From Escherichia phage PNJ1809-36, in sequence record MT944117.1: DNA of 64,000 nt; one strand, written 5' to 3'. Shown piece after piece: positions 36,992-51,845 of the stretch. Numbering within the stretch: position 1 is the stretch's first letter; every line of letters begins with the position of its first letter. The translations under genes and the position numbers were made by a program. The notes beneath the pieces are model-generated. The model searched no databases and had not been told where the DNA came from. It was given only the letters and a program-made list of their open reading frames with translations.

Positions 36992-37016
36992 AAACCCGCT
37001 TCGGCGGGTTTTGTTA
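36992..37016 (+). terminator. intrinsic terminator after AAA+ ATPase gene
   Basis: aaacccgc-UUCG-gcggguuu followed by U-tract. Confidence 0.65.
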
Positions 37017-37053
37017 TATTGATTTCAGTTTAATAGGAAGAGAATTGTTAGAT

Positions 37054-38052
37054 ATGCCAGTAAAGAAGAGTATTGAAACATATATGGAAGAATGTAAGCC
37101 GATAGCTGAGGCTAAAGGGATTACCATTCTCGGCACGTATGGAGAAGATAAAGGTGTGCATACGAAGATGATCAATCGTTGTGAGCATGGTCATGAATGG
37201 AATACTACAACGTTTCACAGTTTTAAAGATGGTCGAGGTTGTCCTAAGTGCGCCTACAGGGAACGTTCGAAAAAGAGAAGCAAAGCTATCACTATTCCAG
37301 ACCAGCAACACATACAAGATTTTATGAAGGTAGGTAAATTTAAGGAAGGCACTATTTTCACCAATACAGGAGAACGTAAAGGGTGTGATATAGTATGGAT
37401 GGTTGAATGTCCTGTTTGCTCTCATGATGAATATGTGGAAGCTGGGGTGTGTGATGGTAAATTCTATGCTACCGGAAGTCATCTTAAACGTGGGTGTCTC
37501 CCTTGCCGCTGTTCTACAAGTTACAAATACACAGAGGATCAGACCACCTATAGAACAAGAAAGGAAGTAGAAAGGAGAGGATATATATGGGTAGGATGGA
37601 TCGGTAAACCTTCAACAATGGGTAAGTTTAAATATGGATGTAAGGAGCACGGGGAACAGATAGGGCGTGCAGATGGTTTGCTACATAAGGGGAGTGGGTG
37701 TCCGCAGTGCGGGGGCCAAAACCAACAACAATGTTACATTAATCATATTTATGATGAAGATGGTATTCTTTGTGCACTGAAGTTTGGTATTGCCAATAGT
37801 AGTGATCGCCGTATCAAAGAACAGAATAGCCGCAATGTGTTTACTATGAGACAAGTTCAAGTGTGGCAGTTCCCCACTGTGAAGCAGTGCAAAAATTCAG
37901 AAAAGTATTGCAAAAAGGTGTTAGACACAGAAGCAGTGAGCAAATATGCTATGCCAGACGGCTACACAGAAACAGTGGAGCTATCTTGTCTGGCATCAAT
38001 ACAAAACATTTATAAACTTTATGGTGGAATATTACAGGAGGAAACATGTTAG
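37054..38052 (+). CDS. Cys-rich protein with repeated CxxC pairs (about 332 aa)
   Basis: ORF track trimmed to ATG with AGGAAGAG SD; GCPKC, CPVC, CLPCRC, GCPQCGG suggest several zinc ribbons; fold unknown. Confidence 0.5.
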   Translation: MPVKKSIETYMEECKPIAEAKGITILGTYGEDKGVHTKMINRCEHGHEWNTTTFHSFKDGRGCPKCAYRERSKKRSKAITIPDQQHIQDFMKVGKFKEGTIFTNTGERKGCDIVWMVECPVCSHDEYVEAGVCDGKFYATGSHLKRGCLPCRCSTSYKYTEDQTTYRTRKEVERRGYIWVGWIGKPSTMGKFKYGCKEHGEQIGRADGLLHKGSGCPQCGGQNQQQCYINHIYDEDGILCALKFGIANSSDRRIKEQNSRNVFTMRQVQVWQFPTVKQCKNSEKYCKKVLDTEAVSKYAMPDGYTETVELSCLASIQNIYKLYGGILQEETC

Positions 38053-38411
38053 TTGACGTTCAAATTATGCGCAACGAAAGAATGGACTTCTTTGAAGCAG
38101 TAGAGAAACATCTGATCAGATGGGACTATGAATTTGTTCCTGCTGGATGTGGACCAGTAGAGCATTTAGCGGAAGACGATGATGTATACATGATCATTCG
38201 TCAAGTGTACCAGACAGACCAGTGTGAAGAAACTCCCGAACTGATTTTGTTTGAGTGTAAAGATCTTGCAAAATATTTTGACTATGGCGGAAAAGAGGGT
38301 CATAATCTCTCCAGATACAATAAACGTCTACTTATCTTAGACTACATGCGGAACAACAAACACAAACTCATCGACGCAGACGCAGTTTATGGCTACTGGT
38401 GGATGGATTAA
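38046..38411 (+). CDS. hypothetical protein (121 aa)
   Basis: ORF track; GGAGGA SD. Confidence 0.45.
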   Translation: MLVDVQIMRNERMDFFEAVEKHLIRWDYEFVPAGCGPVEHLAEDDDVYMIIRQVYQTDQCEETPELILFECKDLAKYFDYGGKEGHNLSRYNKRLLILDYMRNNKHKLIDADAVYGYWWMD

Positions 38412-38424
38412 CAAAGGAGAAACT

Positions 38425-38613
38425 ATGGCACGTTTAGCAGATAACCCTGTATTCTACCCCGTTCTTGATCTTTATGATGAATTGACATATGTTGTGGAGC
38501 GGTATAATTACAATGAAGACCTCTTGGAGACAAACCTTAAAGTAGTTCTGATGAAAGCCTATCAGCAAGGGCAACGTGAAATTTTGGAGAGTATGAAAAA
38601 TGCGAATAACTGA
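38425..38613 (+). CDS. hypothetical protein (about 62 aa)
   Basis: ORF track trimmed to ATG with AAAGGAGAAA SD. Confidence 0.4.
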   Translation: MARLADNPVFYPVLDLYDELTYVVERYNYNEDLLETNLKVVLMKAYQQGQREILESMKNANN

Positions 38614-39142
38614 TGATTATGTATTCTTCTTTTCACATAAAGATGTTTTTAGTAATTGGTATATTGCACCCTTTACAGAAACCGAACCAAGTTACAATCA
38701 GACATTTAATTGTGTCGAACAATACATGATGTGGCGTAAAGCTTTGCTTTTTAATGATCACAACACTGCACAGGCTATTCTGACTCATAGCTTAAAACGA
38801 GAAGATGAGAAGATACAAGCTTATTACAAACGTATGGGTAGGGCAGTAGCAGGTTTCGATAACAAAATATGGGAAGAGAATCGTGAGCGTATTGTTATGC
38901 GAGGTTTATGCTTGAAGTATGTACAGAATCCAGACTTGTATGCCGATTTACGTCTATATCAATACAAAACATTTGTTGAAGCAAGTCCTTACGATAAGGT
39001 ATACGGAATTGGAATGGGGATGTATGAACCAGGGGTGCTAAACCCTGCCACCTGGAAAGGGCAGAATCTTTTAGGCAAATATCATAACAAACTGATCGAA
39101 ATACTTTTCCCAGACAAAATACCGCAAAGACGATATTTGTGA
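38600..39142 (+). CDS. NADAR (DUF1768, YbiA-like) domain protein
   Basis: 180 aa; FFFSHKDVFSNW, NCVEQYMMWRKALLF and ASPYDKVYGIGMG...GQNLLGKYHNKL parallel the E. coli YbiA/NADAR motifs (FSNF, EHYFQAQKF, DAYWGDG...GKNRLG). Confidence 0.7.
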   Translation: MRITDDYVFFFSHKDVFSNWYIAPFTETEPSYNQTFNCVEQYMMWRKALLFNDHNTAQAILTHSLKREDEKIQAYYKRMGRAVAGFDNKIWEENRERIVMRGLCLKYVQNPDLYADLRLYQYKTFVEASPYDKVYGIGMGMYEPGVLNPATWKGQNLLGKYHNKLIEILFPDKIPQRRYL

Positions 39143-39197
39143 TATTTTAACTTTTTTCATTTTTAGAACAAAGGTGTCACTTTGTAGCACAGAAATA

Positions 39198-39234
39198 AGG
39201 CTCCTACAGCACCGTAGAGAGCCTGTTATTTTGT
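39198..39234 (+). terminator. intrinsic terminator after NADAR gene
   Basis: aggcuccuac-AGCACC-guagagagccu followed by GUUAUUUUGU. Confidence 0.5.
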
Positions 39235-39365
39235 CCTATACAAACCCTTATCTTTTTCAGTTTGCATCACTAGGATTCGATCTAAGTGGGTTCCTGAAGG
39301 TTTACCAATAAGATTAAAGGTTATCTCAAATTCCCACTACCTATTATCTCAAAAATCCCTCAAAT

Positions 39366-39431
39366 TATTTAAACTTTTTAAGAATTTACAAAAGTGAAAG
39401 TTGAAAACCAAAATTTAAAGTTTAGGAAAAT
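39366..39431. repeat. direct repeat copy 1 (about 65 bp, AT-rich)
   Basis: atttaaac...tttacaaaagtgaaagttgaaaaccaaaatttaaagtttaggaaaatt, imperfect copy of 39505..39570. Confidence 0.6.
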
Positions 39432-39504
39432 TATCTTAAAATGTTAGATACAAAACAAAACTCAAAAGTCAAGGAAAATTTTAAAAATTTTGCGCGCCCA
39501 CAGT

Positions 39505-39570
39505 ATTTAAAGTTTTTTTGCTTTTACAAAAATGAAAGTACAAAAGCAAAATTTAAAGTTTACAAAAATT
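39505..39570. repeat. direct repeat copy 2
   Basis: atttaaag...tttacaaaaatgaaagtacaaaagcaaaatttaaagtttacaaaaattt. Confidence 0.6.
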
Positions 39571-39610
39571 TATGCAGATGGGAATGAGAAGAGTTCTCAT
39601 ATGGAAATGC

Positions 39611-39631
39611 AAATGATAATGATTCGCATTT
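39611..39631. promoter_or_regulatory. Fur-box-like operator A
   Basis: aaATGATAATGATTcgCATTt versus E. coli Fur consensus GATAATGATAATCATTATC. Confidence 0.4.
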
Positions 39632-39668
39632 AGGTTTATAAATGAGATTGATTCTTATTTGATAAGGT

Positions 39669-39689
39669 AAATGATAATCATTCTCATTT
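39669..39689. promoter_or_regulatory. Fur-box-like operator B
   Basis: aAATGATAATCATTcTCATTt. Confidence 0.45.
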
Positions 39690-39915
39690 AGAGAATGACG
39701 CGCAGGGGCGGTGTTTGTCTCGCGCTCCCGTGTCCCCTCGCCATGTAATAAGAATAACAGATCCAGCCAGGAAAGCAAGCGATTATTTTATCTTTACATT
39801 TCTTTACAAATATATAGCGCCCAGCCTACCGGCGATCAACCTTCCAACCAGCGCCCTGGTATGTTAGCCCCGCCTTTACGCCGTGGGGTGGCGCTTCCTC
39901 TTCTGTATGTAAAAC

Positions 39916-39944
39916 AGTATAAGCCCGATCCCTGGGCTTGTCAA
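39916..39944 (-). promoter_or_regulatory. consensus sigma70 promoter (TTGACA-17-TATACT) firing leftward into ORF-poor GC-rich DNA
   Basis: Minus-strand read TTGACAagcccagggatcgggctTATACT; spacer holds the palindrome agccc/gggct. Confidence 0.55.
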
Positions 39945-39946
39945 GA

Positions 39947-40213
39947 TTATTTTTTGTTTTCTTGCCAGGAAAGGACACCTAACCAAAAATGCATATCGCC
40001 CCGCGCCCCTGGTGGGATCTTGCTTTCCCCGCCGCCACTGCAAGCCCATAAATAACCATCAGCAAACGGATCAAAATGGTCTATCTCTTCCACCTTATGA
40101 TCGCCCAGGTTGAGAACGGTTTCAACCTTTAAGCCCGTTGCGCTTGCTACCTGGTGCACCGTGCCGCCTTGCCAGCCCAATGAGTGCATAAGGTGTAATG
40201 TAGTATTTGTCAT
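39947..40213 (-). CDS. hypothetical protein (88 aa) in GC-rich island
   Basis: ORF track; coding-like composition; upstream promoter TTGCTA-17-TATCAT at 40261..40289 and a GC leader hairpin. Confidence 0.35.
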   Translation of the reverse strand: MTNTTLHLMHSLGWQGGTVHQVASATGLKVETVLNLGDHKVEEIDHFDPFADGYLWACSGGGESKIPPGARGDMHFWLGVLSWQENKK

Positions 40214-40260
40214 GGTGTCGCCCTTTCTTTGTTGTGCGCCCTGGTTGGCGCGGTAGAAAG

Positions 40261-40289
40261 ATGATAGCCCTTTCTTTTATATATAGCAA
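40261..40289 (-). promoter_or_regulatory. sigma70-like promoter (TTGCTA-17-TATCAT) for the 88-aa gene
   Basis: Minus-strand read; followed by GC hairpin gcgcc-AACCAG-ggcgc. Confidence 0.4.
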
Positions 40290-40322
40290 GCAAAAAGAAA
40301 ATAAAAAAGATTGAAAAAGTGA

Positions 40323-40381
40323 TTGACGTTCGCCAGGTGGCGGCATAATATTTACCACGTAGGGCGGCAATGGTGCCGCTC
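40323..40381 (+). promoter_or_regulatory. promoter-hairpin cassette U1 (TTGACG-17-TAATAT, leader hairpin gggcggcAAUGGUgccgcuc)
   Basis: -35/-10 then a GC hairpin at the predicted transcript 5' end, then SD and ATG at 40401. Confidence 0.6.
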
Positions 40382-40400
40382 ATTATTTGGAGTTAAGATC

Positions 40401-40598
40401 ATGGCAACATTGCACATTGTGGCGAAAGCTGGACAAATCAACGTAATAGTAAACGGTTTTACTGAGTTCAGTCATCCCCAGGATGATCATGAAACGGTTT
40501 TATCTTTCATTGATTCACTGTTAGAAATGGGAGTAATTACAGAAGATCAGCATACTGCAAAATGCAAGCGCGTTAAGCAGATTGCAGGAATAGAATAA
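40401..40598 (+). CDS. hypothetical protein (about 65 aa)
   Basis: ORF track 40323..40598 trimmed to ATG after SD; the track start is the TTG of the -35 box. Confidence 0.45.
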   Translation: MATLHIVAKAGQINVIVNGFTEFSHPQDDHETVLSFIDSLLEMGVITEDQHTAKCKRVKQIAGIE

Positions 40599-40603
40599 AA
40601 GTC

Positions 40604-40666
40604 TTGACAACAAGCCACAACCTGATAAGATGTATCACATAGGGCGGCGGAATGGTCCAGCCGCTC
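40604..40666 (+). promoter_or_regulatory. promoter-hairpin cassette U2 (TTGACA-16-TAAGAT)
   Basis: Hairpin gggcggcggAAUGGUccagccgcuc. Confidence 0.6.
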
Positions 40667-40689
40667 ACAACAGAAGAGAGATTATAATC

Positions 40690-40962
40690 ATGGCATCATA
40701 TAGCGCAACAATGATCGTAGCTGGCACAACTGGTAAACCTATGAGCGGTGGCGGATCTTTCGCTAATATCAATATTGACGGGCGTTTATCCCTGGACGCA
40801 GCGATTGCCATTGCACGGGAAACATTTAAGAAAGAATGTAATTTCAACAAGCAAGATTATCTCGGTTTCGCTATTGAAAAAACCGCGCGCTTTGTTGATT
40901 ATAAAAGCCCGAAAATGGTTGATACTACACTAAAAGCGCAAGATGTAGCGTTTTTGCTTTAA
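40690..40962 (+). CDS. hypothetical protein (about 90 aa)
   Basis: ORF track trimmed to ATG with AGAAGAGAG SD. Confidence 0.45.
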   Translation: MASYSATMIVAGTTGKPMSGGGSFANINIDGRLSLDAAIAIARETFKKECNFNKQDYLGFAIEKTARFVDYKSPKMVDTTLKAQDVAFLL

Positions 40963-40965
40963 GGC

Positions 40966-41020
40966 TTGACATTAACGAATAATTTGTTAATATGTTACAT
41001 AAAGCGGGAATAGTTCCCGC
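40966..41020 (+). promoter_or_regulatory. promoter-hairpin cassette U3 (TTGACA-16-TAATAT)
   Basis: Hairpin gcgggaAUAGUUcccgc. Confidence 0.6.
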
Positions 41021-41038
41021 TATTTGTAAGGTGGTAGA

Positions 41039-41296
41039 ATGTTTTACATCAAATTAAAAGGTCACGTGATCGCGTTCAAAGATAACGCTTTTTACAGATT
41101 AGCAAAATATGCGTTAATACATCCCCACTATGTTTATATAAGGGGGCGTGATGAAATAAATATCTTTGATCAAACAACATGCGAGAACATCGAGATCCGC
41201 AAGGTTGGCGTACGTGATTATCGTACATCTTTCTACCCTTGCAAGGATTCAGCAAGTCTTTTTAAAGTATGCCAATTGTTGAAAAAAGGTGGTTAA
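41039..41296 (+). CDS. hypothetical protein (85 aa)
   Basis: ORF track. Confidence 0.45.
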   Translation: MFYIKLKGHVIAFKDNAFYRLAKYALIHPHYVYIRGRDEINIFDQTTCENIEIRKVGVRDYRTSFYPCKDSASLFKVCQLLKKGG

Positions 41297-41297
41297 T

Positions 41298-41855
41298 ATG
41301 GGCCGCGAATATGTGATCCAGTCTTGGGTAAAACATGAAGCAGATGATCCGCGCATCATTCCCGATCATCTTATCGATGAATCCACGGGATATAGCGGTG
41401 AGCAAATAGGTAACAGATTAGCACGTAGTAACGGCAACGTAAAAGCGCGTTATGTGCGCCCTGGCTGGCTGGCAAATGGTAACGCTGATTTATCCAGTGC
41501 GGAAGATGCGAGCGACGGCGCGAAAGATAATCCTTTGTACAAAGTTGATCCGGCTTTTCGTGTCCTGGATGAATACCCCAGCAAGATAGCGGCGCTTGAT
41601 GAAGCATTAGAAAGTAAGCGCATAACCTGGACCGCTTACAACATGGCAAAAAACGTACTTGATGGTAAATTGATTCAAGCCGAAAGAAAATTAGCCAAAA
41701 TTGCAGCCATAGCCCAGGAGGAAGACGAGGAGACAACGGAAGAGGAAGAGTACGAAGAGATCCCGCCGTTGTTGTGTATTGATGCTTTTCCTGATTATCA
41801 GCCGACAGAGGAAGAAAAAAGGATCGCACTAGAAAACTTTGAAAATAGTCTTTGA
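41298..41855 (+). CDS. hypothetical protein with acidic C-terminus (about 185 aa)
   Basis: ORF track trimmed to ATG; no own promoter. Confidence 0.45.
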   Translation: MGREYVIQSWVKHEADDPRIIPDHLIDESTGYSGEQIGNRLARSNGNVKARYVRPGWLANGNADLSSAEDASDGAKDNPLYKVDPAFRVLDEYPSKIAALDEALESKRITWTAYNMAKNVLDGKLIQAERKLAKIAAIAQEEDEETTEEEEYEEIPPLLCIDAFPDYQPTEEEKRIALENFENSL

Positions 41856-41910
41856 CATATCGCCGCCACTGGTATAATATTTACCACGTAGGGCGGCAAT
41901 GGTGCCGCTC
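41852..41910 (+). promoter_or_regulatory. promoter-hairpin cassette U4 (TTGACA-15-TATAAT)
   Basis: -35 overlaps upstream stop; hairpin identical to U1. Confidence 0.6.
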
Positions 41911-41937
41911 ATAGTGAAATTATGCAAGAGGTTTACA

Positions 41938-42033
41938 ATGATTAATAAAGAAAATAGCTTGACGGTTGGAACGATTAACGCTATCATTTTCGCCGTTCCA
42001 TTTTGGGTTGTAGTAGCGGCTATTATTTTCTAA
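41938..42033 (+). CDS. small hydrophobic peptide (31 aa)
   Basis: Manual translation MINKENSLTVGTINAIIFAVPFWVVVAAIIF; sole ORF behind cassette U4. Confidence 0.3.
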   Translation: MINKENSLTVGTINAIIFAVPFWVVVAAIIF

Positions 42034-42041
42034 AAATATTC

Positions 42042-42102
42042 TTGACAACGTTTTTTAATCTGATAAGATGTATCACATAGGGCGGCGGAATACTTCCCCG
42101 CC
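42042..42102 (+). promoter_or_regulatory. promoter-hairpin cassette U5 (TTGACA-16-TAAGAT)
   Basis: Hairpin gggcggcggaaUACuuccccgcc. Confidence 0.6.
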
Positions 42103-42123
42103 AAAACAAAAAAGGGTAACACA

Positions 42124-42486
42124 ATGAGCAAGCAAATCAATACTATCATGTTTAATCTGGTATCTTTCCGCGATGATATGAAAAATTTACCACGTGAAAC
42201 GGTTGATATTCATGTTTCAGCTTATCGCGCCCTTATTGATATGTTACCGCTAAAACGTGATCAACATGCCGCTAATATGATGCTTAATGCTATGCTTAAA
42301 AAGATGATTCAAACGGATCTTACTCTGGCGTATGAGTATCAAGGGCGCTTATATGCTACTTACAACAAGGCGGTACCTGGTCTGGGAAGTACCGAAGAGT
42401 TGCACGGCTTAAACTTGGATCAGAACACTTGGGATAGTATGCGCCGCGTTATGGTATGGGCCGAAAGCGGTAAAATTTACGAATAA
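42124..42486 (+). CDS. hypothetical protein (120 aa)
   Basis: ORF track. Confidence 0.45.
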   Translation: MSKQINTIMFNLVSFRDDMKNLPRETVDIHVSAYRALIDMLPLKRDQHAANMMLNAMLKKMIQTDLTLAYEYQGRLYATYNKAVPGLGSTEELHGLNLDQNTWDSMRRVMVWAESGKIYE

Positions 42487-42492
42487 AAACGG

Positions 42493-42552
42493 TTGACACT
42501 GTTTAAAATTCCGGTATAGTTTACCACATAGGGCGGGAAGTGGTTTCCCGCC
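42493..42552 (+). promoter_or_regulatory. promoter-hairpin cassette U6 (TTGACA-16-TATAGT)
   Basis: Hairpin gggcgggaaGUGGUuucccgcc. Confidence 0.6.
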
Positions 42553-42574
42553 AACAATGAAAAAGGTTATCATC

Positions 42575-42940
42575 ATGGCTATTAATATTAATGTTTCCTC
42601 TTATGCTACCCTGGCTAACACGGCTAAAATTGAATTATCCAGCATTGAGGCGGTGCATATTAGCGCCCGTCGCTGGTTTCAACAGTCCTACGGTAACACA
42701 TATTTTTCTTTAATGGTTGACGTTGAGATCGGCGGTAAACTGATCGAGGTGGTTAACGTTCCGTTTCAATATGGCTATGGTGATCATTTTGATACCGTCG
42801 CCCTGGAAGAATTTAGCAAGGTTATCAACCTTGAGGGCAAGGAATTTTCACGCGGCGCGTATCTTTCCCGTTTTTGCCGTGACAATGGGATCACTGTATA
42901 CAGTCATGCAAGCGATGTTAAACGTAAAAAAGATCTATAA
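42575..42940 (+). CDS. hypothetical protein (about 121 aa)
   Basis: ORF track 42557..42940 trimmed to second ATG (MAININ) by analogy with 43447. Confidence 0.4.
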   Translation: MAININVSSYATLANTAKIELSSIEAVHISARRWFQQSYGNTYFSLMVDVEIGGKLIEVVNVPFQYGYGDHFDTVALEEFSKVINLEGKEFSRGAYLSRFCRDNGITVYSHASDVKRKKDL

Positions 42941-42946
42941 AAAGCA

Positions 42947-43008
42947 TTGACAGCACGAATAAAAAGAGTAAACTGTATTACATAGAGAGCGGGAACACTT
43001 CCCGCCTC
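42947..43008 (+). promoter_or_regulatory. promoter-hairpin cassette U7 (TTGACA-16-TAAACT)
   Basis: Hairpin gcgggaaCACuucccgc. Confidence 0.6.
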
Positions 43009-43029
43009 ACTGAAAAAGAGAGAAAAATC

Positions 43030-43269
43030 ATGGCTAAATCTAAAATGTACAACGGTCACAAAAACAAAACTCATTGGAATGTAAGCCTGTGGATTAATAA
43101 CGATGAGGGATTGTATCGGTTTGCATTGGGATTGATCAATGAGTGCGGTAATAAAGATCAGGCGGCTGATTTAATGTGCTACCGTTTGAAACAGGATGGA
43201 ATCACTACAACGCCAGACGGCTTTAAGTATAGTAAAACTGCAATCCGCGCCGCTATGGTTGGAATGTAA
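43030..43269 (+). CDS. hypothetical protein (79 aa)
   Basis: ORF track. Confidence 0.45.
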   Translation: MAKSKMYNGHKNKTHWNVSLWINNDEGLYRFALGLINECGNKDQAADLMCYRLKQDGITTTPDGFKYSKTAIRAAMVGM

Positions 43270-43282
43270 AGGAGACATAAAA

Positions 43283-43363
43283 ATGAAACATCGTTCGACC
43301 TATCTCACAAAACGTTTTAGCTTAGATCATAAATTGGGCTATTACGGAAGAAATAGAAAATAA
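43283..43363 (+). CDS. possible 26-aa peptide
   Basis: AAGGAGACATAAAA then ATG; MKHRSTYLTKRFSLDHKLGYYGRNRK; very short. Confidence 0.2.
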   Translation: MKHRSTYLTKRFSLDHKLGYYGRNRK

Positions 43364-43364
43364 T

Positions 43365-43424
43365 TTGACAACGTTTAAAATTAGTGTAAGATGTATCACA
43401 TAGGGCGGGAAGTGGTTTCCCGCC
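43365..43424 (+). promoter_or_regulatory. promoter-hairpin cassette U8 (TTGACA-16-TAAGAT)
   Basis: Hairpin identical to U6. Confidence 0.6.
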
Positions 43425-43446
43425 AACAACAGAGAGATTAAAGATT

Positions 43447-43674
43447 ATGGCTATCAATATTGTTCGTGTATCCGGCACCGTTGGCAGTTCCCAGGTTGTA
43501 GCAGTTGTAACAAACAAAAAGATTAATGATGTATGTGAGATCTTGAATAAGTGGGCTATTGCTAATTTTGGAGAATATGCGAGCGTCGAGTACATCGAAT
43601 CCTACCAGGTGCCAACCATCAGCCTAACCGATCTCAACGTTGATCGCCTGTTATGCCTGGATGAATTAATCTGA
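43447..43674 (+). CDS. hypothetical protein (75 aa)
   Basis: ORF track. Confidence 0.45.
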   Translation: MAINIVRVSGTVGSSQVVAVVTNKKINDVCEILNKWAIANFGEYASVEYIESYQVPTISLTDLNVDRLLCLDELI

Positions 43675-43683
43675 AAAAGATTG

Positions 43684-43741
43684 TTGACACGGGAAAGAAA
43701 AAGAGTAAACTGTATTACGTAGGGCGGCAATGGTGCCGCTC
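43684..43741 (+). promoter_or_regulatory. promoter-hairpin cassette U9 (TTGACA-16-TAAACT)
   Basis: Hairpin identical to U1. Confidence 0.6.
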
Positions 43742-43764
43742 ACAACAGAAGAGAGATTATCACG

Positions 43765-43980
43765 ATGGCTAATATCCGCACACTGTTAAAAAATGCAAGT
43801 CAAGTTTTATTTTCAGATGACGAGTATTTCAATAAAGACATTACGGGCGTAAAAAGTCTTAAAGATGTAAAGGATGTAATAGGTATTCGCGGATCTTTAC
43901 GTAAGGGCGATTACTACGGTAACAAGGTGCAATATAAACTGTCAAAAGATTATGATTTTACTTTGACAATTATCAACTAA
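43765..43980 (+). CDS. hypothetical protein (71 aa)
   Basis: ORF track. Confidence 0.45.
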   Translation: MANIRTLLKNASQVLFSDDEYFNKDITGVKSLKDVKDVIGIRGSLRKGDYYGNKVQYKLSKDYDFTLTIIN

Positions 43981-43991
43981 GGGATCACAAA

Positions 43992-44150
43992 ATGAAAACT
44001 TGCCAATGTGGTAAAAAGTCTATCTCTGGTTTAAAACGTGGCGTTGCTCTTTGTCAATACCACTATAACGCTCAAACGTGGGGTAAGCAGTGGGCGGATC
44101 AGGTGGAAGAGGCAAAGAAAGAAAATATAAAAGTAGTTGCAAAGAAATAA
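43992..44150 (+). CDS. hypothetical small Cys-containing protein (52 aa)
   Basis: Manual translation MKTCQCGKKSISGLKRGVALCQYHYN... Confidence 0.35.
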   Translation: MKTCQCGKKSISGLKRGVALCQYHYNAQTWGKQWADQVEEAKKENIKVVAKK

Positions 44151-44199
44151 AAATAGAGTAAACTGTATTACATCAAGGCGGCGGAATGGTCCACCGCCT
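44137..44199 (+). promoter_or_regulatory. promoter-hairpin cassette U10 (TTGCAA-16-TAAACT)
   Basis: Hairpin ggcggcggAAUGGUccaccgcc. Confidence 0.5.
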
Positions 44200-44222
44200 A
44201 ACAAAGAGAAGAGGAAAATATC

Positions 44223-44390
44223 ATGATCACTTTCGCTACCCGTGAAGCCGCTCGCAACGTTGCACGTAAAGTTAACGCCGCCAACTTGGGCGCTACGCTT
44301 AAAGCCCCTGTAAAAGATGAATCAGGAAAATGGATCTTACCTGGTCTGCGTCATGCTGACAAGTTAGGTACTTTAAGCCTTAAAAAATAA
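44223..44390 (+). CDS. hypothetical basic protein (55 aa)
   Basis: Manual translation MITFATREAARNVARKVNAANLG... Confidence 0.4.
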   Translation: MITFATREAARNVARKVNAANLGATLKAPVKDESGKWILPGLRHADKLGTLSLKK

Positions 44391-44393
44391 TCG

Positions 44394-44431
44394 TTGACTT
44401 TTCGTTATAGCGCCTTATAATGGGCGCTATA
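44394..44431 (+). promoter_or_regulatory. promoter U11 (TTGACT-16-TATAAT) with -10 inside the loop of a 9-bp palindrome
   Basis: tatagcgccTTATAATGggcgctata. Confidence 0.5.
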
Positions 44432-44464
44432 GAGAAGAGAAACCACTATTAACAAGGAAACATC

Positions 44465-44686
44465 ATGATTACTTTTGCTATTGTCGCCGTTGTTGCTGGT
44501 CAGGTTTACGTAAACGAGACATTTACTACAGAAGACAAGGCCGCAGGAGATATAACCGCCGTTTACAATGAGTGCAAGGCAGTAGAAAGGATGTTATCGC
44601 CTTGTATGCTAATGAGTGAACGTCAGGATGGGATAACAGTATTTACTAACATTGAAACAGGGTACCAAATGGTAGTAACAAAATAA
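44465..44686 (+). CDS. hypothetical protein (73 aa)
   Basis: ORF track. Confidence 0.45.
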   Translation: MITFAIVAVVAGQVYVNETFTTEDKAAGDITAVYNECKAVERMLSPCMLMSERQDGITVFTNIETGYQMVVTK

Positions 44687-44689
44687 AGC

Positions 44690-44747
44690 TTGACACGTAT
44701 TTAATTTTCAGTAAACTGTTACACGTAGGGCGGGAATAGTTCCCGCT
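44690..44747 (+). promoter_or_regulatory. promoter-hairpin cassette U12 (TTGACA-16-TAAACT)
   Basis: Hairpin gggcgggaAUAGUUcccgcu. Confidence 0.6.
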
Positions 44748-44764
44748 AAAAAGAGAGAAAGACC

Positions 44765-45118
44765 ATGAAAGCACAAAATGCAATTAAAGAGTACATCCTT
44801 GCCGCTATCGATTTTAATGATTATGGTATTACAACCGAAAAAGAGAAGATCGCGGAATTGATGCGCCGTTTTAATTCCGAGTACTGGTACCCTGATAACC
44901 AATCACGTTTTAATTATAGTATTGTTAAAGCACTTGCATCATGGTTACAAGGTTTGCCATCAGATATTAATATCGCTTTCGAATATTGGGAAATTGATCG
45001 CTTGTTAACATCCTGGGGATACATTAAAGAGAATAGCAGCGATGATAAAATCCAACGAGAAAGGGAAAATTATTGGCTTTATATTGCAGGCGTGATCCTT
45101 GCTTGCTCTTATGAATGA
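44765..45118 (+). CDS. hypothetical protein (117 aa)
   Basis: ORF track. Confidence 0.45.
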   Translation: MKAQNAIKEYILAAIDFNDYGITTEKEKIAELMRRFNSEYWYPDNQSRFNYSIVKALASWLQGLPSDINIAFEYWEIDRLLTSWGYIKENSSDDKIQRERENYWLYIAGVILACSYE

Positions 45119-45124
45119 TAAACC

Positions 45125-45178
45125 TTGACAATTTTACAAAACAGTTTAAATTAATAATATAGCGGCAATGGTGCCGCT
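45125..45178 (+). promoter_or_regulatory. promoter-hairpin cassette U13 (TTGACA, AT-rich -10 region)
   Basis: Hairpin agcggcAAUGGUgccgcu; exact -10 register ambiguous. Confidence 0.5.
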
Positions 45179-45197
45179 CATATAAAGAGGAAACAAA

Positions 45198-45344
45198 ATG
45201 AATACATCTAATCGCGCAGAAAAAATTCAATCTTCCAAGATCCGCAAGGCCTGGAATGAGGAAGTGATCCGCAAAGGCGACAAGCGCAATAAAACAAAGC
45301 GCGGGAAGAGTGACAAATATAATTGGATGGATTTAGAGAATTAA
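45198..45344 (+). CDS. hypothetical basic protein (48 aa)
   Basis: Manual translation MNTSNRAEKIQSSKIRKAWNEEVIRKG... Confidence 0.4.
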   Translation: MNTSNRAEKIQSSKIRKAWNEEVIRKGDKRNKTKRGKSDKYNWMDLEN

Positions 45345-45350
45345 CATAAC

Positions 45351-45378
45351 AAGGGCGCACCAAGCGCCCTTTCTTTTT
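45351..45378 (+). terminator. intrinsic terminator, copy 1 of a duplicated 28-mer
   Basis: aagggcgcACCAAgcgcccuu followed by UCUUUUU; same sequence at 50806..50833. Confidence 0.7.
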
Positions 45379-45399
45379 ACATGTAGAGGATAAACAAAA

Positions 45400-45585
45400 A
45401 TGACTTTAAACGAGCTTAAAACAGCCTATAACGCAACATTAAAAATAGCCGTGCGTTACCGTGACGAATACGGTTTTATTGCGCAGGGCGTGATCCTGGG
45501 CTTTTCTGACGATGGTTTGATCTATGTTGATGCACATCACAACAAGGTTAAACTTGAAAACGTCATTAGCATAAAATATCTTTAA
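45400..45585 (+). CDS. hypothetical protein (61 aa)
   Basis: ORF track. Confidence 0.4.
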   Translation: MTLNELKTAYNATLKIAVRYRDEYGFIAQGVILGFSDDGLIYVDAHHNKVKLENVISIKYL

Positions 45586-45591
45586 AAGTGG

Positions 45592-45651
45592 TTGACACCA
45601 TAACCGGACCTGTTAAACTGTATTACATCAGGCGGGGAATAGTTCCCCACC
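45592..45651 (+). promoter_or_regulatory. promoter-hairpin cassette U14 (TTGACA-16-TAAACT)
   Basis: Hairpin ggcggggaAUAGuuccccacc. Confidence 0.55.
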
Positions 45652-45670
45652 ATACAAAAAGGTAAATATT

Positions 45671-45877
45671 ATGATCACCGCAAAACAAGAAAAAATCATT
45701 ATCGACGTTGCAGCCGTTGCCGCTATTGCTATTATCGGTACCTACTATGACACCGCGCGTCCTTCCTCCTTGCATGAGATCGCCGCCGTTGCATCAGTTG
45801 GCGTGCTGTTTTACGTTGGTAAACGTTATTTATCACCAATGATTAACAAGCTGACACCGTGGAAAAATAAAGGTTGA
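45671..45877 (+). CDS. small membrane protein (68 aa)
   Basis: ORF track; hydrophobic segments. Confidence 0.45.
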   Translation: MITAKQEKIIIDVAAVAAIAIIGTYYDTARPSSLHEIAAVASVGVLFYVGKRYLSPMINKLTPWKNKG

Positions 45878-45932
45878 TCCTGTTTTATATTGTGTTATAG
45901 TTATCGTGTAGGGCGGCAATGGTGCCGCGCCC
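45874..45932 (+). promoter_or_regulatory. promoter-hairpin cassette U15 (TTGATC-16-TATAGT)
   Basis: Hairpin gggcggcAAUGGUgccgcgccc. Confidence 0.5.
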
Positions 45933-45948
45933 CTTTGAGGATGCAATC

Positions 45949-46233
45949 ATGAGTAAAGCTAACACCGTGCTAATGTTTTCCCTGATTAATGATCCCGCTT
46001 ACTTGTCCAACATGACGCAGGAGGGTAACACATTAACGGCAACATTCACCAATAAGCTTGACCGAGTGATCATCATCTCACTGAAAACAGTTAGTAAAGG
46101 CTTTTACTCGTTAGCTTATCATTGGATCACTGATACCGATGAGACAAGCCAGGACTATAGCGCCCCTTTCCCTGAATCAATGGCACGGGAGATCATCGCC
46201 GCCGTTGTAAATGATGGTTTGTTTACTGCATAA
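45949..46233 (+). CDS. hypothetical protein (about 94 aa)
   Basis: ORF track 45919..46233 trimmed; the track start is the AUG inside the hairpin loop. Confidence 0.45.
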   Translation: MSKANTVLMFSLINDPAYLSNMTQEGNTLTATFTNKLDRVIIISLKTVSKGFYSLAYHWITDTDETSQDYSAPFPESMAREIIAAVVNDGLFTA

Positions 46234-46251
46234 AATAATTTAGAAAAAGGC

Positions 46252-46308
46252 TTGCAATCATTTTGAGATAGTGTATATTTAATTCATAGGGCGGCGGGAA
46301 TAGTTCCC
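46252..46308 (+). promoter_or_regulatory. promoter-hairpin cassette U16 (TTGCAA-16-TATATT)
   Basis: Hairpin gggaaUAGuuccc with 5' gggcggc extension. Confidence 0.5.
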
Positions 46309-46331
46309 AAAGCAAACGAGAGGATTACACG

Positions 46332-46451
46332 ATGAGCAAGTACACAGTAGAATACACGGTAGAGAATCCGGTAGTATCCGAAGGTAAAAAGATGACATTT
46401 GCCATCAGTATAATCGCTTTCGTTGTCACTATCTTATCAATCATCTTATAA
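46332..46451 (+). CDS. small membrane-anchored protein (39 aa)
   Basis: Manual translation MSKYTVEYTVENPVVSEGKKMTFAISIIAFVVTILSIIL. Confidence 0.35.
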   Translation: MSKYTVEYTVENPVVSEGKKMTFAISIIAFVVTILSIIL

Positions 46452-46461
46452 GGTGCACACC

Positions 46462-46623
46462 ATGAAAATAACAGACATTATCAAAGAGATCGCCCTTGCC
46501 GCTGGCGTTGAAGTCGAGGAAGTGATCGCGCTCAATCTTACAGAAAACGATCTGCGCAACTATGAAGCGGAAAGCGTGAAAGCAAGCGGCGCGGTCCTGG
46601 TATATGATCCGGCTAACAAGTAA
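46462..46623 (+). CDS. hypothetical protein (about 53 aa)
   Basis: ORF track 46423..46623 trimmed to ATG with AAGGTG SD. Confidence 0.4.
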   Translation: MKITDIIKEIALAAGVEVEEVIALNLTENDLRNYEAESVKASGAVLVYDPANK

Positions 46624-46632
46624 GGGGATAAC

Positions 46633-46743
46633 ATGAATCCGAAAGATATGCAAGCATGGAAAGGGTACGACGATCTAAGCGCCTTGCGCAATAAGTCAAG
46701 CCGTAACCTTAGACGGTTGGAAGCAAAGAAAAAGAAAAAATAG
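46633..46743 (+). CDS. possible basic peptide (36 aa)
   Basis: Manual translation MNPKDMQAWKGYDDLSALRNKSSRNLRRLEAKKKKK. Confidence 0.3.
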   Translation: MNPKDMQAWKGYDDLSALRNKSSRNLRRLEAKKKKK

Positions 46744-46744
46744 T

Positions 46745-46802
46745 TTGACAAGTCCGCGTAGTCTGATAATATGTATCTTGTAGCGCGGCAATGGTGCCGC
46801 TC
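46745..46802 (+). promoter_or_regulatory. promoter-hairpin cassette U17 (TTGACA-16-TAATAT)
   Basis: Hairpin gcgcggcAAUGGUgccgcuc. Confidence 0.6.
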
Positions 46803-46821
46803 ACAAGAAGAGAGAAAAATC

Positions 46822-47106
46822 ATGAAAATTACAAAAAGCCTAACTAATTATGCAGCACGTCGCGGATTATGCTTAACCGTTGAAAACTTAGGGAAAGAAG
46901 ACTTTTTGTGTTTTTGGGAGCTTGAGAATGATTGCGAGTGGATGTTTTCTTATTCTATCTGCGAAGATCAAAACGGTTGTTTGTTAACCTGGCGCGGTAA
47001 TATCTATTTACCGGAAGAAATTAAAGAAGAGTTACCAGGTACGATCATGACAGAGAGACAGCTTAAGGAAGTGATCAATTTTGTAGGGCAAAACATTAAA
47101 AAATAA
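46822..47106 (+). CDS. hypothetical protein (about 94 aa)
   Basis: ORF track 46771..47106 trimmed to ATG. Confidence 0.45.
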   Translation: MKITKSLTNYAARRGLCLTVENLGKEDFLCFWELENDCEWMFSYSICEDQNGCLLTWRGNIYLPEEIKEELPGTIMTERQLKEVINFVGQNIKK

Positions 47107-47107
47107 T

Positions 47108-47170
47108 TTGACAGTAGGCAAACAACGTAGTAAAGTTTATTACATAGAGCGGCGGAATGGTCCACCGCTC
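47108..47170 (+). promoter_or_regulatory. promoter-hairpin cassette U18 (TTGACA-17-TAAAGT)
   Basis: Hairpin gagcggcggAAUGGUccaccgcuc. Confidence 0.6.
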
Positions 47171-47191
47171 ACAACAGAAGAGAAACAAATC

Positions 47192-47362
47192 ATGATCCCG
47201 ACTATGTTTTATGTATCGCGCAAAGGTCACAATATTTTTTGGTCTGAAGATTTAAATGAAGCTATGACGTTTGCCCGTGATCGTGTTGCTATCGGTGGCG
47301 TTAACATCACCGTAACCGATGAAAATGGCATTGAATACTATAACGGCGACGATGAAGAATAA
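47192..47362 (+). CDS. hypothetical protein (about 56 aa)
   Basis: ORF track 47108..47362 trimmed; the track start is the -35 TTG. Confidence 0.4.
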   Translation: MIPTMFYVSRKGHNIFWSEDLNEAMTFARDRVAIGGVNITVTDENGIEYYNGDDEE

Positions 47363-47369
47363 TTAATGA

Positions 47370-47390
47370 GGCGGGGGAGTATTCCCCGCC
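47370..47390 (+). other. intercistronic GC hairpin without promoter
   Basis: ggcggggGAGUAUUccccgcc between the stop at 47362 and the next SD. Confidence 0.45.
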
Positions 47391-47409
47391 GTCAATAAAG
47401 AGGTAAATC

Positions 47410-47679
47410 ATGAAAATATCATTAGACGTTGCAATCAAGGCCATCGAATCTGGTTACATCCTGGTAAAAGATGATAAGGCTAAAATAGTGCATCATGTTA
47501 ACAAGGAAACAGGTGAAAGCATGATCACATATAAAGCCGCCTACTTTCTCCAATCAGTAGCAGATCCGCGCGTACAACGCCAGGTTACGGCGGCTATTGC
47601 TAAAAAATTATGTGCTTTACAGGGTACAAGTTTTAACGAGATCGCCCCGTGTTTTGAGTGGTCAAGCTTGAAAAAATAA
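47410..47679 (+). CDS. hypothetical protein (89 aa)
   Basis: ORF track. Confidence 0.45.
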   Translation: MKISLDVAIKAIESGYILVKDDKAKIVHHVNKETGESMITYKAAYFLQSVADPRVQRQVTAAIAKKLCALQGTSFNEIAPCFEWSSLKK

Positions 47680-47680
47680 T

Positions 47681-47742
47681 TTGACAACAATTATAAATCG
47701 GGTAGAATGTATTTCGTAGGGCGGGGCAATAAGGCAACGCCC
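47681..47742 (+). promoter_or_regulatory. promoter-hairpin cassette U19 (TTGACA-16-TAGAAT)
   Basis: Hairpin gggcg-(14-nt loop)-cgccc. Confidence 0.5.
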
Positions 47743-47760
47743 ATTAATGAGGGTAGAATC

Positions 47761-47865
47761 ATGTTAGAGAAAATTTTCACGGTCGTAGTAGTGGGCCTGG
47801 CGTTATCGGTTGGAGTGGTTGCGACTATGGCTAACATGATCCTATCTTCCCACGGTATCGGCTAA
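47761..47865 (+). CDS. small hydrophobic peptide (34 aa)
   Basis: Manual translation MLEKIFTVVVVGLALSVGVVATMANMILSSHGIG. Confidence 0.3.
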   Translation: MLEKIFTVVVVGLALSVGVVATMANMILSSHGIG

Positions 47866-47879
47866 AAGAGAGACACAAC

Positions 47880-48266
47880 ATGAAAACAGAAATCATTATT
47901 GAAATCATCAACGGCTATAAAGAAGCCTTTATTTTTGCTGAATCAGCAAGGGATCATGAAGGTAATTTTATTGATAACTTAGACGATTATGATTTTTCTC
48001 CTAGCGCGGACGAACGGATCGCCCAGGATGTAACAGCCTTTATTAATGCTAATCTTGCCGCTATCTCTGAGGCAATGAGCGACGGCGCAACAGCCAACCA
48101 GATCGGGAATGATTTACATTTTACCCGTAACAGTCACGGCGTAGGCTTTTGGGATCGCCCTGAAATATACACCACTAACACAGCCAACCGCCTAACCAAT
48201 GCAGCTAAGTTTATGCCGAACGTGTCGGCTTACATTGGTGAAGATAATTTGATTTATATTGAATAA
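47880..48266 (+). CDS. hypothetical acidic protein (128 aa)
   Basis: ORF track. Confidence 0.45.
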   Translation: MKTEIIIEIINGYKEAFIFAESARDHEGNFIDNLDDYDFSPSADERIAQDVTAFINANLAAISEAMSDGATANQIGNDLHFTRNSHGVGFWDRPEIYTTNTANRLTNAAKFMPNVSAYIGEDNLIYIE

Positions 48267-48272
48267 AAAGTA

Positions 48273-48329
48273 TTGACACAGATCGCCAGTGTGCTAATAT
48301 TTACCACGTAGGGCGGCAATGGTGCCGCC
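48273..48329 (+). promoter_or_regulatory. promoter-hairpin cassette U20 (TTGACA-16-TAATAT)
   Basis: Hairpin gggcggcAAUGGUgccgcc (no wobble pair). Confidence 0.6.
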
Positions 48330-48347
48330 GATAATGAGGAAAGTAAA

Positions 48348-48647
48348 ATGGAAACTATCGCTATTGTTACCGTAGAAAAACTGGTTGTTGGTGATGTATT
48401 CGCGTTAATGGTGCCTAACAGCAGCAAGCTGGGCGCTTATGAAGTAATGGATCATAAAAATGAATCATTTGGCGACGGTTGCACAATGGCGGTAAAATCC
48501 TTAAAGGATGGAATCATCCGTCAAGCTAATTGGCACAAAGGGAATCAAGTCGGATTAATATCAGCTAATTTCTTGCCAGAAGAGCAAACGTTAGACCAAC
48601 TATCAGGCGGTAAGACGTTAGCCGAACTACTGGAAACAGCGATCTAA
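48348..48647 (+). CDS. hypothetical protein (99 aa)
   Basis: ORF track. Confidence 0.45.
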   Translation: METIAIVTVEKLVVGDVFALMVPNSSKLGAYEVMDHKNESFGDGCTMAVKSLKDGIIRQANWHKGNQVGLISANFLPEEQTLDQLSGGKTLAELLETAI

Positions 48648-48655
48648 TCAACAAA

Positions 48656-48669
48656 GGGCGGCAACGCCC
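48656..48669 (+). other. intercistronic GNRA-tetraloop hairpin
   Basis: gggcgGCAAcgccc. Confidence 0.45.
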
Positions 48670-48690
48670 CACATCAGAAAGGAAAAGATT

Positions 48691-48927
48691 ATGAGTATTG
48701 CAACAGTATTAACCGCCGTTAAAACCGCTGAATCATCCGGCTTGCATGTTGAGCTTATAGATCAACCAGGTGGCGATCTCCTTGTCCAGGTTTACCCGCC
48801 GAAAGTAGGAGATGATTATTATTGGTGCTATTCTGATACGTTCGAACAAGTAGACACGAAAGCGATCACGGCTTTTATTTTAAAAGCTGTTGAAGAAAAT
48901 AACTTTCATTATAACATCAATCAATAA
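48691..48927 (+). CDS. hypothetical protein (78 aa)
   Basis: ORF track. Confidence 0.45.
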   Translation: MSIATVLTAVKTAESSGLHVELIDQPGGDLLVQVYPPKVGDDYYWCYSDTFEQVDTKAITAFILKAVEENNFHYNINQ

Positions 48928-50792: not shown

Positions 50793-50805
50793 TTGACAAC
50801 AAAAC

Positions 50806-50833
50806 AAGGGCGCACCAAGCGCCCTTTCTTTTT
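50806..50833 (+). terminator. intrinsic terminator, copy 2 of the duplicated 28-mer
   Basis: aagggcgcACCAAgcgcccuu followed by UCUUUUU. Confidence 0.7.
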
Positions 50834-51038
50834 GCCCGAATAATGTTGATAGATTCCGCCTATGAAAAACCGACACAGAACAAAACTGAATAGATCGCGG
50901 TATCGAGCTAATCAACCATTAAACGAATAACCATACCTCCCAGGGTAACAGGTTGTTAGAGAGCCATTTAGAGCGGTTAAAATCGATCAACAACCAACAA
51001 CAAACCATCAAAAACACCCTTTTACCTCCTTTCTAGTG

Positions 51039-51058
51039 CAATGATAACCATTATCATC
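51039..51058. promoter_or_regulatory. Fur-box-like operator C
   Basis: gcAATGATAAcCATTATCatc. Confidence 0.45.
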
Positions 51059-51826: not shown

Positions 51827-51845
51827 AAATAATAATCATTCTCAT
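51827..51845. promoter_or_regulatory. Fur-box-like operator D
   Basis: taAATAATAATCATTcTCat. Confidence 0.35.

Follow-up and report, generated by a model that had tools for sequence, protein, structure and literature searches.

What is encoded in the GC-richest stretch of Escherichia phage PNJ1809-36, and why does it adjoin the most AT-rich one? The DNA analysed here, hereafter the window, comprises 64,000 nucleotides (nt) of record MT944117.1. It is 100% identical to Escherichia phage vB_EcoM_ASO2A (MZ726793; Phapecoctavirus, Stephanstirmvirinae), window position 39300 corresponding to position 145608 of that record. The GC content is 0.507 over positions 39700–40214 and 0.486 over 39700–40320, against a window mean of 0.394 (standard deviation about 0.026), which places the two intervals in the top 0.05–0.13% of segments of equal size; the GC-richest part is about 500 bp long. 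The adjoining DNA (39300–39690) has a GC content of 0.251, the lowest of the window. An earlier note, made from the letters alone, had described about 600 bp of GC-rich DNA, which the computed composition bears out. It had also called this patch an island, with an 88-amino-acid 'moron', and had proposed that a leftward promoter within it makes a small structured RNA. Our analysis strongly supports another view of the patch, as the leftward-transcribed edge of the early region. As strongly supported is the make-up of the locus: three leftward promoters of the early class, a single early gene of the ordinary type, two structured elements that are conserved and non-coding, and a conserved, phased operator array. 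The source of the GC-richness is structured-RNA sequence plus one coding gene.

The three promoters, P88, P1 and P3, are of the early, host sigma-70 class and follow one another leftwards. P88 precedes the gene for the 88-amino-acid (aa) protein, and the elements beyond that gene are the following.

39916–39944, minus strand: promoter P1, TTGACA-17-TATACT, matching 11 of 12 consensus positions, with conserved hexamers and a variable spacer.
39826–39905, minus strand: core of RNA-1, an element of about 85 nt, scored at 101.8 bits by its covariance model and found as a single copy in the window.
39791–39810, minus strand: spacer motif TTTGTAAAGAAATGTAAAGA with two TGTAAAG copies, between RNA-1 and P3, near-invariant in most aligned loci.
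39751–39778, minus strand: promoter P3, TTGCTT, 16 nt, TGtTATTCT (extended -10), with conserved hexamers and a free spacer.
39695–39746, minus strand: RNA-2, a stem-loop of about 50 nt with a covarying outer stem.
39583–39688, no strand assigned: four Fur-box-like palindromes AATGAnAATnATTnTCATT, starting at 39583, 39612, 39641 and 39670, at a spacing of exactly 29 bp.
39300–39582, no strand assigned: the most AT-rich DNA, with two 72-nt direct repeats (39361–39432 and 39499–39570).
39198–39234, plus strand: terminator of the upstream rightward operon, annotated in MZ726793.

The near-perfect leftward promoter reported earlier, P1, is present and conserved as a promoter. Its hexamers (TTGACA, 39944–39939; TATACT, 39921–39916) form the best site in a 2-kb promoter scan, and transcription is predicted to start at A39910 or A39908. 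We aligned the region from phages phi92, TSP7_1, nepoznato, Av-05, SF1-1, FBKp34, phiTE, CR8, PVP-SE1/GEC_vB_MG, POP15 and Kashira, together with 27 IMG/VR and metagenome contigs fetched with a 23–26-nt pattern. The P1 hexamers are kept and the 17-nt spacer is freely replaced in 37 distinct loci from GenBank, IMG/VR and metagenomes. P3 shows the same behaviour across genera, in 8 phages and about 35 loci. Because the hexamers are conserved while the spacers are free, P1 and P3 most probably act as promoters. Both, like P88, share with about 14 neighbouring rightward early promoters an A-rich upstream element, TTGACA-like and TAnnnT hexamers and an ACAT start context.

As the earlier note stated, P1 fires into about 200 nt full of GC palindromes whose only open reading frame (ORF) has 18 codons, and we found no credible ORF there. 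Its proposal of a small structured RNA holds in part: the DNA is non-coding and its hairpins carry compensatory changes, but it contains two promoter–RNA units rather than one RNA. The 200 nt moreover belong to a conserved non-coding region of about 800 bp with Fur-like operators and repeats. Three features had been overlooked, namely P3, which falls below the threshold of a simple promoter scan, the palindrome array at the left edge of the GC-rich patch, and a hairpin in the P1 spacer.

The first unit, RNA-1, stands out by its conservation, which becomes near-absolute at the predicted start (ACAUACAG), stays so over about 85 nt and falls off after GGUAG. The core was found by blastn in 226 phage records at 80–100% identity; like RNA-2, it is conserved across two phage subfamilies. 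In SF1-1, it is 97.9% identical, compared with 48% for the 88-aa protein; in nepoznato, 20.6% of the gene positions differ, compared with only a couple of substitutions or indels within the core. RNA-1 is non-coding, because indels of 1–6 nt in two of its loops break any reading frame. They also break the in-frame reading of the core that would end at a conserved UAG, for which there is no start codon past the transcription start. CR8 and POP15 retain P1 and RNA-1 despite the absence of the 88-aa gene. In Citrobacter phage Tr1, the covariance model detects a syntenic but diverged variant (24.6 bits, E 2e-4), which retains helices H1 and H2 and the 3' AAUCGCCGG.

The consensus fold obtained with RNAalifold comprises H1 (39893–39879, CGCC/GGCG), an outer GGCGG/UCGCC pairing and H2 (39863–39845). 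H2 is the sole variable helix, and it covaries: three of its pairs have changed on both sides, and none of 500 shuffles reached the observed covariation. Overall, 96.9% of cells are paired. Pair 61–83 is A-U in 16 sequences and G-C in 13, and Kashira exchanges two further pairs. The switch at pair 61–83 would have arisen more than once, because sequences with the same promoter type carry different forms (locus L023 versus L024, L027 and L040; L034 versus L029 and L030). Several other readings of RNA-1 were dropped. A closing helix between its 5' leader and the variable 3' tail was rejected, the apparent pairings shifting register between lineages. CCAGGUCGGAAGG resembles domain IV of 4.5S RNA, the signal recognition particle (SRP) RNA, but it sits in a different structural context, and none of the SRP models of Rfam gave a match. 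As for complementarity to RyhB, it is limited to the palindromic UGAUCGC, at a position that varies among phages.

Contig L025 (IMGVR_UViG_2974574029_000001), over the segment from +65 to +800 relative to the core motif, carries an HNH homing-endonuclease gene directly after the core (junction CGCTGGTA/C). This gene is followed by a second promoter, TTGACA-17-CATAAT, with a GC hairpin in its spacer, and by a divergent, Tr1-type copy of RNA-1. An HNH endonuclease gene is also annotated under the core match in phage K23PH08C2 (OY757067). Homing endonucleases typically insert at conserved functional targets.

The second unit begins about 160 nt beyond P1. A conserved TTTGTAAAGAAnTGTAAAGA motif precedes P3, and the second TGTAAAG copy is degenerate in Kashira, L029, L030 and L036; TTTGTAAAG is not enriched over the whole window. 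P3 is predicted to start transcription at A39746 or A39744, and its start context, ACAT(A/G)GCG(G)GGG, resembles the early-class CACATAGGGCGGC motif. In the outer stem of RNA-2, AUGGCGAG (39744–39737) pairs with GCGCGUCAU (39703–39695), that is, the first eight bases of the transcript with those just before the first palindrome, and the invariant AGACAAACACC motif (39720–39710) is enclosed between them. This stem is 87.5% paired (alignment A5). Pair 5–51 is GC in 9 sequences, AU in 5 and GU in 3, and pair 6–50 is G.U in 16 of 22 sequences and GC in 6. A covarying stem so rich in G.U pairs points to an RNA, made from the minus strand. Around an invariant AGACAA(A/U)CACC, the inner GC stem differs from lineage to lineage in both sequence and register.

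The distribution of RNA-2 differs from that of RNA-1. Matches in Erwinia phages span P3 and RNA-2 and not RNA-1, and the 3' part of RNA-2 plus the box also match Vequintavirus records. RNA-1 is absent from Vequintavirus proper, where a second RNA-2-like module takes its place. Thus, Escherichia phage nimi (L043, 700–1000) has two tandem modules, each made up of a promoter, a GAGACAA(C/T)CACC element and a Fur-like box. In rV5-type phages, the two modules are followed by direct repeats of about 70 bp containing GATCGAGTAC.

The palindromes that follow RNA-2 have a 7-1-7 design with a free central base. The pattern derived from them has 11 matches in the window where 1.4 are expected, a number reached in none of 100 shuffles. 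Measured from the core motif, the distance to the first box is similar, about +186 to +241, in 16 loci. These represent every genus examined and include phages of Pectobacterium, Cronobacter, Serratia, Klebsiella and Salmonella. The first box reads TGAGAATGATTATCA in most genera, and Certrevirus-type loci extend the array at about +224, +253 and +290. The best box matches the 19-bp consensus of the Escherichia coli Fur box (GATAATGATAATCATTATC; PMC2189734) at 16 of 19 positions, and its 7-1-7 form at 14 of 15. At two boxes, a second match is shifted by 6 bp (39606/39612 and 39664/39670); such overlapping sites are a signature of genuine Fur clusters (PMC2189734). Phages of many Enterobacterales carry the boxes, and Fur boxes are alike across those hosts. 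The array differs from known Fur operators in its half-site, TGAGAAT instead of TGATAAT, and in that it is phased at 29 bp downstream of promoters rather than placed over their -10 and -35 hexamers. The ligand may be host Fur, a phage-encoded dimer being the alternative.

Similar palindromes occur in a second ORF-poor region of about 1.5 kb (50800–52360), at 51040, 51828 and 52007; the box at 52007 fits the derived pattern perfectly. One of the boxes of that region lies about 55 nt downstream of a promoter-like TTGATA...TATAAT, seen by eye, with a spacer beyond the limit of a simple scan. We considered whether this region (51.9–52.04 kb) holds a paralogue of RNA-2, and rejected the idea, only the box being alignable.

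Beyond the array, the two 72-nt repeats are 82% identical and 138 bp apart. Each holds a plus-strand promoter-like sequence, TTTACA-18-CAAAAT, and such sites could give rise to rightward transcripts antisense to RNA-2 and RNA-1. At the equivalent place in phiTE (L009, 2190–2680), downstream of Fur-like boxes, there are at least six (GAT)CGAGACC iterons, several with GATC, a layout that resembles an origin or a packaging (pac) site. L025 and nimi have GATCGAG iterons there. The whole forms a block of about 800 bp without credible ORFs (39143–39946) to the left of the early region. The terminator of the upstream rightward operon is its left limit and presumably also halts leftward transcripts. 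The block has an origin-like architecture, in that promoters point into AT-rich DNA, repeats or iterons are present and ORFs are lacking. The genome map of phage rV5 shows a 'non-coding' box that may be the same locus (PMC3606486).

What could this arrangement do? In the explanation that we favour, P88 would express the 88-aa protein, from an mRNA that most likely ends at the hairpin in the P1 spacer. P1 would start the non-coding, structured RNA-1, and P3 the RNA-2 stem-loop displaying AGACAAACACC. Because both units lack an ORF as well as a clear intrinsic terminator, these transcripts would run on through the phased Fur-type operators into the AT-rich repeat DNA. There, early transcripts made by host RNA polymerase would open or prime the block in cis, their structured 5' domains would control their fate, and host Fur or a phage dimer, bound at the palindromes, would act as a gate to read-through. 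We regard this as the best explanation as a whole, with a confidence that stops a little short of even. Its last element, that the ORF-free block is the replication-origin or control region of the family, opened or primed by early transcripts in cis with boxes gating read-through, draws on analogy and is put forward tentatively.

The analogues are of three kinds. In the primary origin of phage T7, an AT-rich stretch comes after two tandem promoters, phi1.1A and phi1.1B, and oriF and oriG of T4 combine a promoter with a DNA-unwinding element and an R-loop primer. Similarly, tandem early promoters here face the most AT-rich, ORF-free DNA of the region, and their transcripts could open or prime it. 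In contrast with those origins, the promoters are of the host sigma-70 type, the transcripts have conserved structured 5' domains, and a phased palindrome array separates promoter from AT-rich DNA. RNA II, the pre-primer of plasmid ColE1, has a structured 5' domain. The present locus is like it in having a promoter a few hundred nt upstream of a putative origin, a structured 5' domain and a G-rich RNA strand. It is unlike it in being carried by a phage and not a plasmid, without sequence similarity; no antisense partner of the RNA I type was found, and no motif for RNase H or a C-run hybrid was identified. Finally, the put RNA of phage HK022, transcribed immediately behind an early promoter, brings about antitermination in cis. 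Here too, two stem-loops directly follow a strong early promoter in DNA devoid of ORFs, and they could, by analogy only, act on the transcribing polymerase; unlike for put, no defined terminators to be suppressed are known.

Several observations weigh against our explanation. The transcription starts, the 3' ends and the stable RNAs are all predictions, and nothing ties the region directly to replication. DnaA boxes are at chance level in the window, with none in the region, and the skew, which shows no inflection, is uninformative. Phapecoctaviruses have AT-rich repeats instead of the GATC iterons of their relatives. With z scores of -1.27 (96 nt) and 0.05 (221 nt), RNA-1 folds with no unusual stability, and two of its three helices are invariant, hence uninformative. 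The shifting register of the RNA-2 inner stem adds to these doubts, as does a hairpin overlapping the first box, which shows no covariation. Covariation of the Watson-Crick type does not by itself distinguish an RNA hairpin from a DNA cruciform. As for the boxes, they lie about 50–150 nt downstream of P3 (about +55 to +160) and not over a promoter, only weak promoter-like sites overlapping them (e.g. TTTATA-18-TATCAT, 39642–39613). Fur usually represses from sites over the promoter. Fur is a candidate by virtue of the consensus match, and such matches can fail to bind the protein (PMC2189734). Skew analysis could not locate the origin of rV5 either, according to its genome paper (PMC3606486).

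We favour cis-acting early transcripts of an origin or control region, and trans-acting small RNAs would be nearly as likely a function. In that alternative, which we consider somewhat unlikely as it stands, RNA-1 and RNA-2 would be discrete stable RNAs, and the neighbouring boxes and repeats unrelated regulatory DNA. The RNAs would either bind a conserved component of host or phage (RNA polymerase, a ribonuclease and a defence protein are examples) or use their invariant loops to pair with mRNAs. The gene-like boundaries of RNA-1 conservation, from predicted start to GGUAG, fit this idea, and so does its retention in phages devoid of the 88-aa gene. Extreme conservation of sequence across hosts of at least 10 genera is expected for an RNA that contacts conserved machinery, and the loops ACCCCAC, GGAAGG and AGACAAACACC are invariant. 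However, no rho-independent terminator or U-tail of the Hfq type follows RNA-1 or RNA-2, the only terminator candidate there being the hairpin overlapping the first box, which is weak and AU-rich. The complement of the RNA-2 loop was not found elsewhere in the window, and Vequintavirus proper does with a second RNA-2-like module instead of RNA-1.

Comparison with known RNA families does not help this alternative. Rfam 15 gave no match at E <=1 in 37000–43000, and 39560–39960 only reached chance-level scores of 10–20 bits where gathering scores are 43–100; ARAGORN found no tRNA or tmRNA in the whole window. In its favour, a relative, phiTE, is known to use a non-coding RNA against ToxIN (PMC3475682). 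We examined this pseudo-ToxI as a possible counterpart and rejected it. The phiTE escape locus is at 106,714–106,772, compared with about 39.6 kb in phiTE for the present locus, sequence and structure are unrelated, and the AT-rich 36-nt repeats that are its feature (PMC3475682) are unlike what is seen here.

It is improbable, in our view, that the hairpins and palindromes act as DNA, in a pac recognition region or as protein-binding origin elements, with incidental transcription from P1 and P3. The 7-1-7 boxes with a free central base are typical of sites for dimeric DNA-binding proteins, and the GATC-containing iterons of the relatives recall pac or oriR of bacteriophage P1. These phages also package by the headful and have circularly permuted genomes (PMC3475682). 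Nevertheless, G.U pairs, which are possible neither in DNA nor on the other strand, dominate at the RNA-2 stem position described above and are invariant at one RNA-1 position, and both elements start exactly at conserved early-class promoters.

Still less probable are relic leaders, that is, promoters and 5' untranslated regions of early genes whose ORFs were lost, drifting without function. The P1 RNA does start with the early-gene purine tract ACAGAAGAGGAA and the P3 RNA like a standard 5' hairpin, but the conservation pattern already contradicts this idea: across two subfamilies, the core has changed far less than the coding sequence beside it, and its hairpin is preserved through compensatory changes, whereas drift would have erased it. 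That the stretch encodes a protein is barely credible: the 114-aa plus-strand coding sequence phAPEC8_00257 (39715–40056), which figures in the annotation of phAPEC8, matches nothing in Pfam or PHROG, lies across RNA-2, RNA-1 and the antisense of the genuine 88-aa gene, is broken by 1–6-nt indels in relatives and is probably spurious, and the 18-codon ORF (AUG 39744 to UAA 39690–39688), which starts at the predicted P3 transcription start and might be translated leaderless, has AUA for AUG in Certrevirus-type loci and in L021, L023, L024, L034 and L040.

The remaining part of the GC-rich patch is the 88-aa gene with its signals.

40261–40289, minus strand: promoter P88, TTGCTA-17-TATCAT, 9 of 12 consensus matches, weaker than P1.
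40235–40250, minus strand: 5' leader hairpin of the 88-aa mRNA, GCGCC-aacca-GGGCGC, read from the sequence.
39947–40213, minus strand: the 88-aa early gene, ASO2A_262, phrog_19316, from the ORF list and a family match.
39921–39939, minus strand: GC hairpin AAGCCC-agggatc-GGGCTT in the P1 spacer, flagged as terminator-like.

The leftward ORF, which the earlier note had endowed with its own promoter and leader hairpin, is a real gene. Its product matches phrog_19316 end to end (E 4.5e-59), and tblastn detects it in 151 phage records at identities down to about 42%. Substitutions are concentrated in third codon positions (82, 55 and 185 at positions 1, 2 and 3). The P88 hexamers are kept around different spacers (TTGCTA-17-TATAAT in Av-05, TTGACT-16-TATAAT in Kashira). 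The leader hairpin, which reads GCGCCC-TGGTT-GGCGC on the plus strand, is followed on its 3' side by a ACAACAAAGAAAGGG ribosome-binding region. This layout is that of the rightward early genes, a hairpin plus a ACAACAGAAGAGAG leader; the hairpin itself is limited to Phapecoctavirus and Justusliebigvirus. AlphaFold2 gives a confident five-helix model of the protein (predicted local distance difference test score, pLDDT, of 94), with no known neighbour of the predicted fold. Homologues form 21 protein clusters, nearly all from assemblies, several of them on contigs of about 140–150 kb; the only named members are from a Serratia phage and one assembly record labelled E. coli.

At its 3' end, the 88-aa mRNA probably has its intrinsic terminator in the P1-spacer hairpin, with a U-rich tail that would begin in the -10 hexamer. 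In the alignments, read by eye, phages that possess the gene have another GC hairpin of equal quality here, as in Tr1, Kashira, phiTE, L036 and L042. In CR8 and POP15, which lack the gene, the spacer holds only almost loopless, GC-rich near-palindromes (also by eye).

As a moron would, the gene has its own promoter and a downstream hairpin, yet every neighbouring early gene has the same cassette. Moreover, its distribution is not patchy or insertion-like, with relatives in hosts or unrelated phages; it occupies the same position in about 150 records of the lineage. Judged on these features, it is an ordinary lineage-conserved early gene and not a moron, because its distribution is lineage-wide and its cassette is common to about 15 neighbouring early genes. 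An acquired island is equally at odds with this distribution and with the blastn search against host genomes, which the earlier note had called for and which gave no match in 5,426 E. coli genomes. Among 185,579 species genomes, a 22-base core pattern matched only one 4-kb contig of a metagenome-assembled genome. The host labels of several 'Campylobacter phage' records (MG0656xx) and of one 'Acinetobacter phage' look doubtful, since these sequences share about 96% identity with the coliphages.

To the right of the patch, the early region (40.3–48.7 kb) consists of about 15 rightward genes (40323–48700). Their shared cassette comprises an A-rich tract, TTGACA, 16–17 nt, TAnnnT, a 5' hairpin and a ribosome-binding region. 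The start context and hairpin read CAC(A/G)TAGGGCGGC-loop-GCCGCTCA, followed by the ACAACAGAAGAGAG ribosome-binding region, as at 40354–40383 and 40632–40668. The TAGGGCGGC motif occurs 18 times where 4 occurrences are expected. The hairpins are labelled terminators in the ASO2A record and 'PHIRE promoters' in that of phAPEC8; they are probably the 5' leader stem-loops of early mRNAs. Two corrections to existing annotations follow, for the ASO2A 'terminators' and, as seen above, for the phAPEC8 coding sequence.

The elements described here appear in neither Rfam, GenBank annotations nor the searchable literature, subscription journals lying outside the search. The literature on transcriptomes, origins or Fur sites of these phages yielded nothing relevant, and a preprint on phage transposon mutagenesis makes no mention of this phage family. 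Our study provides an anatomy for a non-coding block of about 1 kb that has apparently been drawn only as an empty box so far: two early promoters, two structured RNAs absent from Rfam and annotations, an operator array and repeats. Phage early non-coding RNAs and origin-type control regions are of a known kind; the interest here lies in the ultra-conserved RNA and in a Fur-type array carried by strictly virulent phages. Relatives of rV5, phi92 and PVP-SE1 are in wide use as candidates for therapy and biocontrol. If Fur truly binds the boxes, they would represent a rare case of strictly virulent phages wiring a host metal sensor into their early programme. It is tempting to speculate further, although we deem it unlikely, that RNA-1 and RNA-2 represent the first examples of a class of phage non-coding RNAs not described before. 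They would be produced during the first minutes of infection and act on conserved host machinery, for instance by promoting read-through by RNA polymerase or by neutralising a defence protein or ribonuclease, and the Fur-operator arrays here and at 51–52 kb would link the early programme or replication to host iron.

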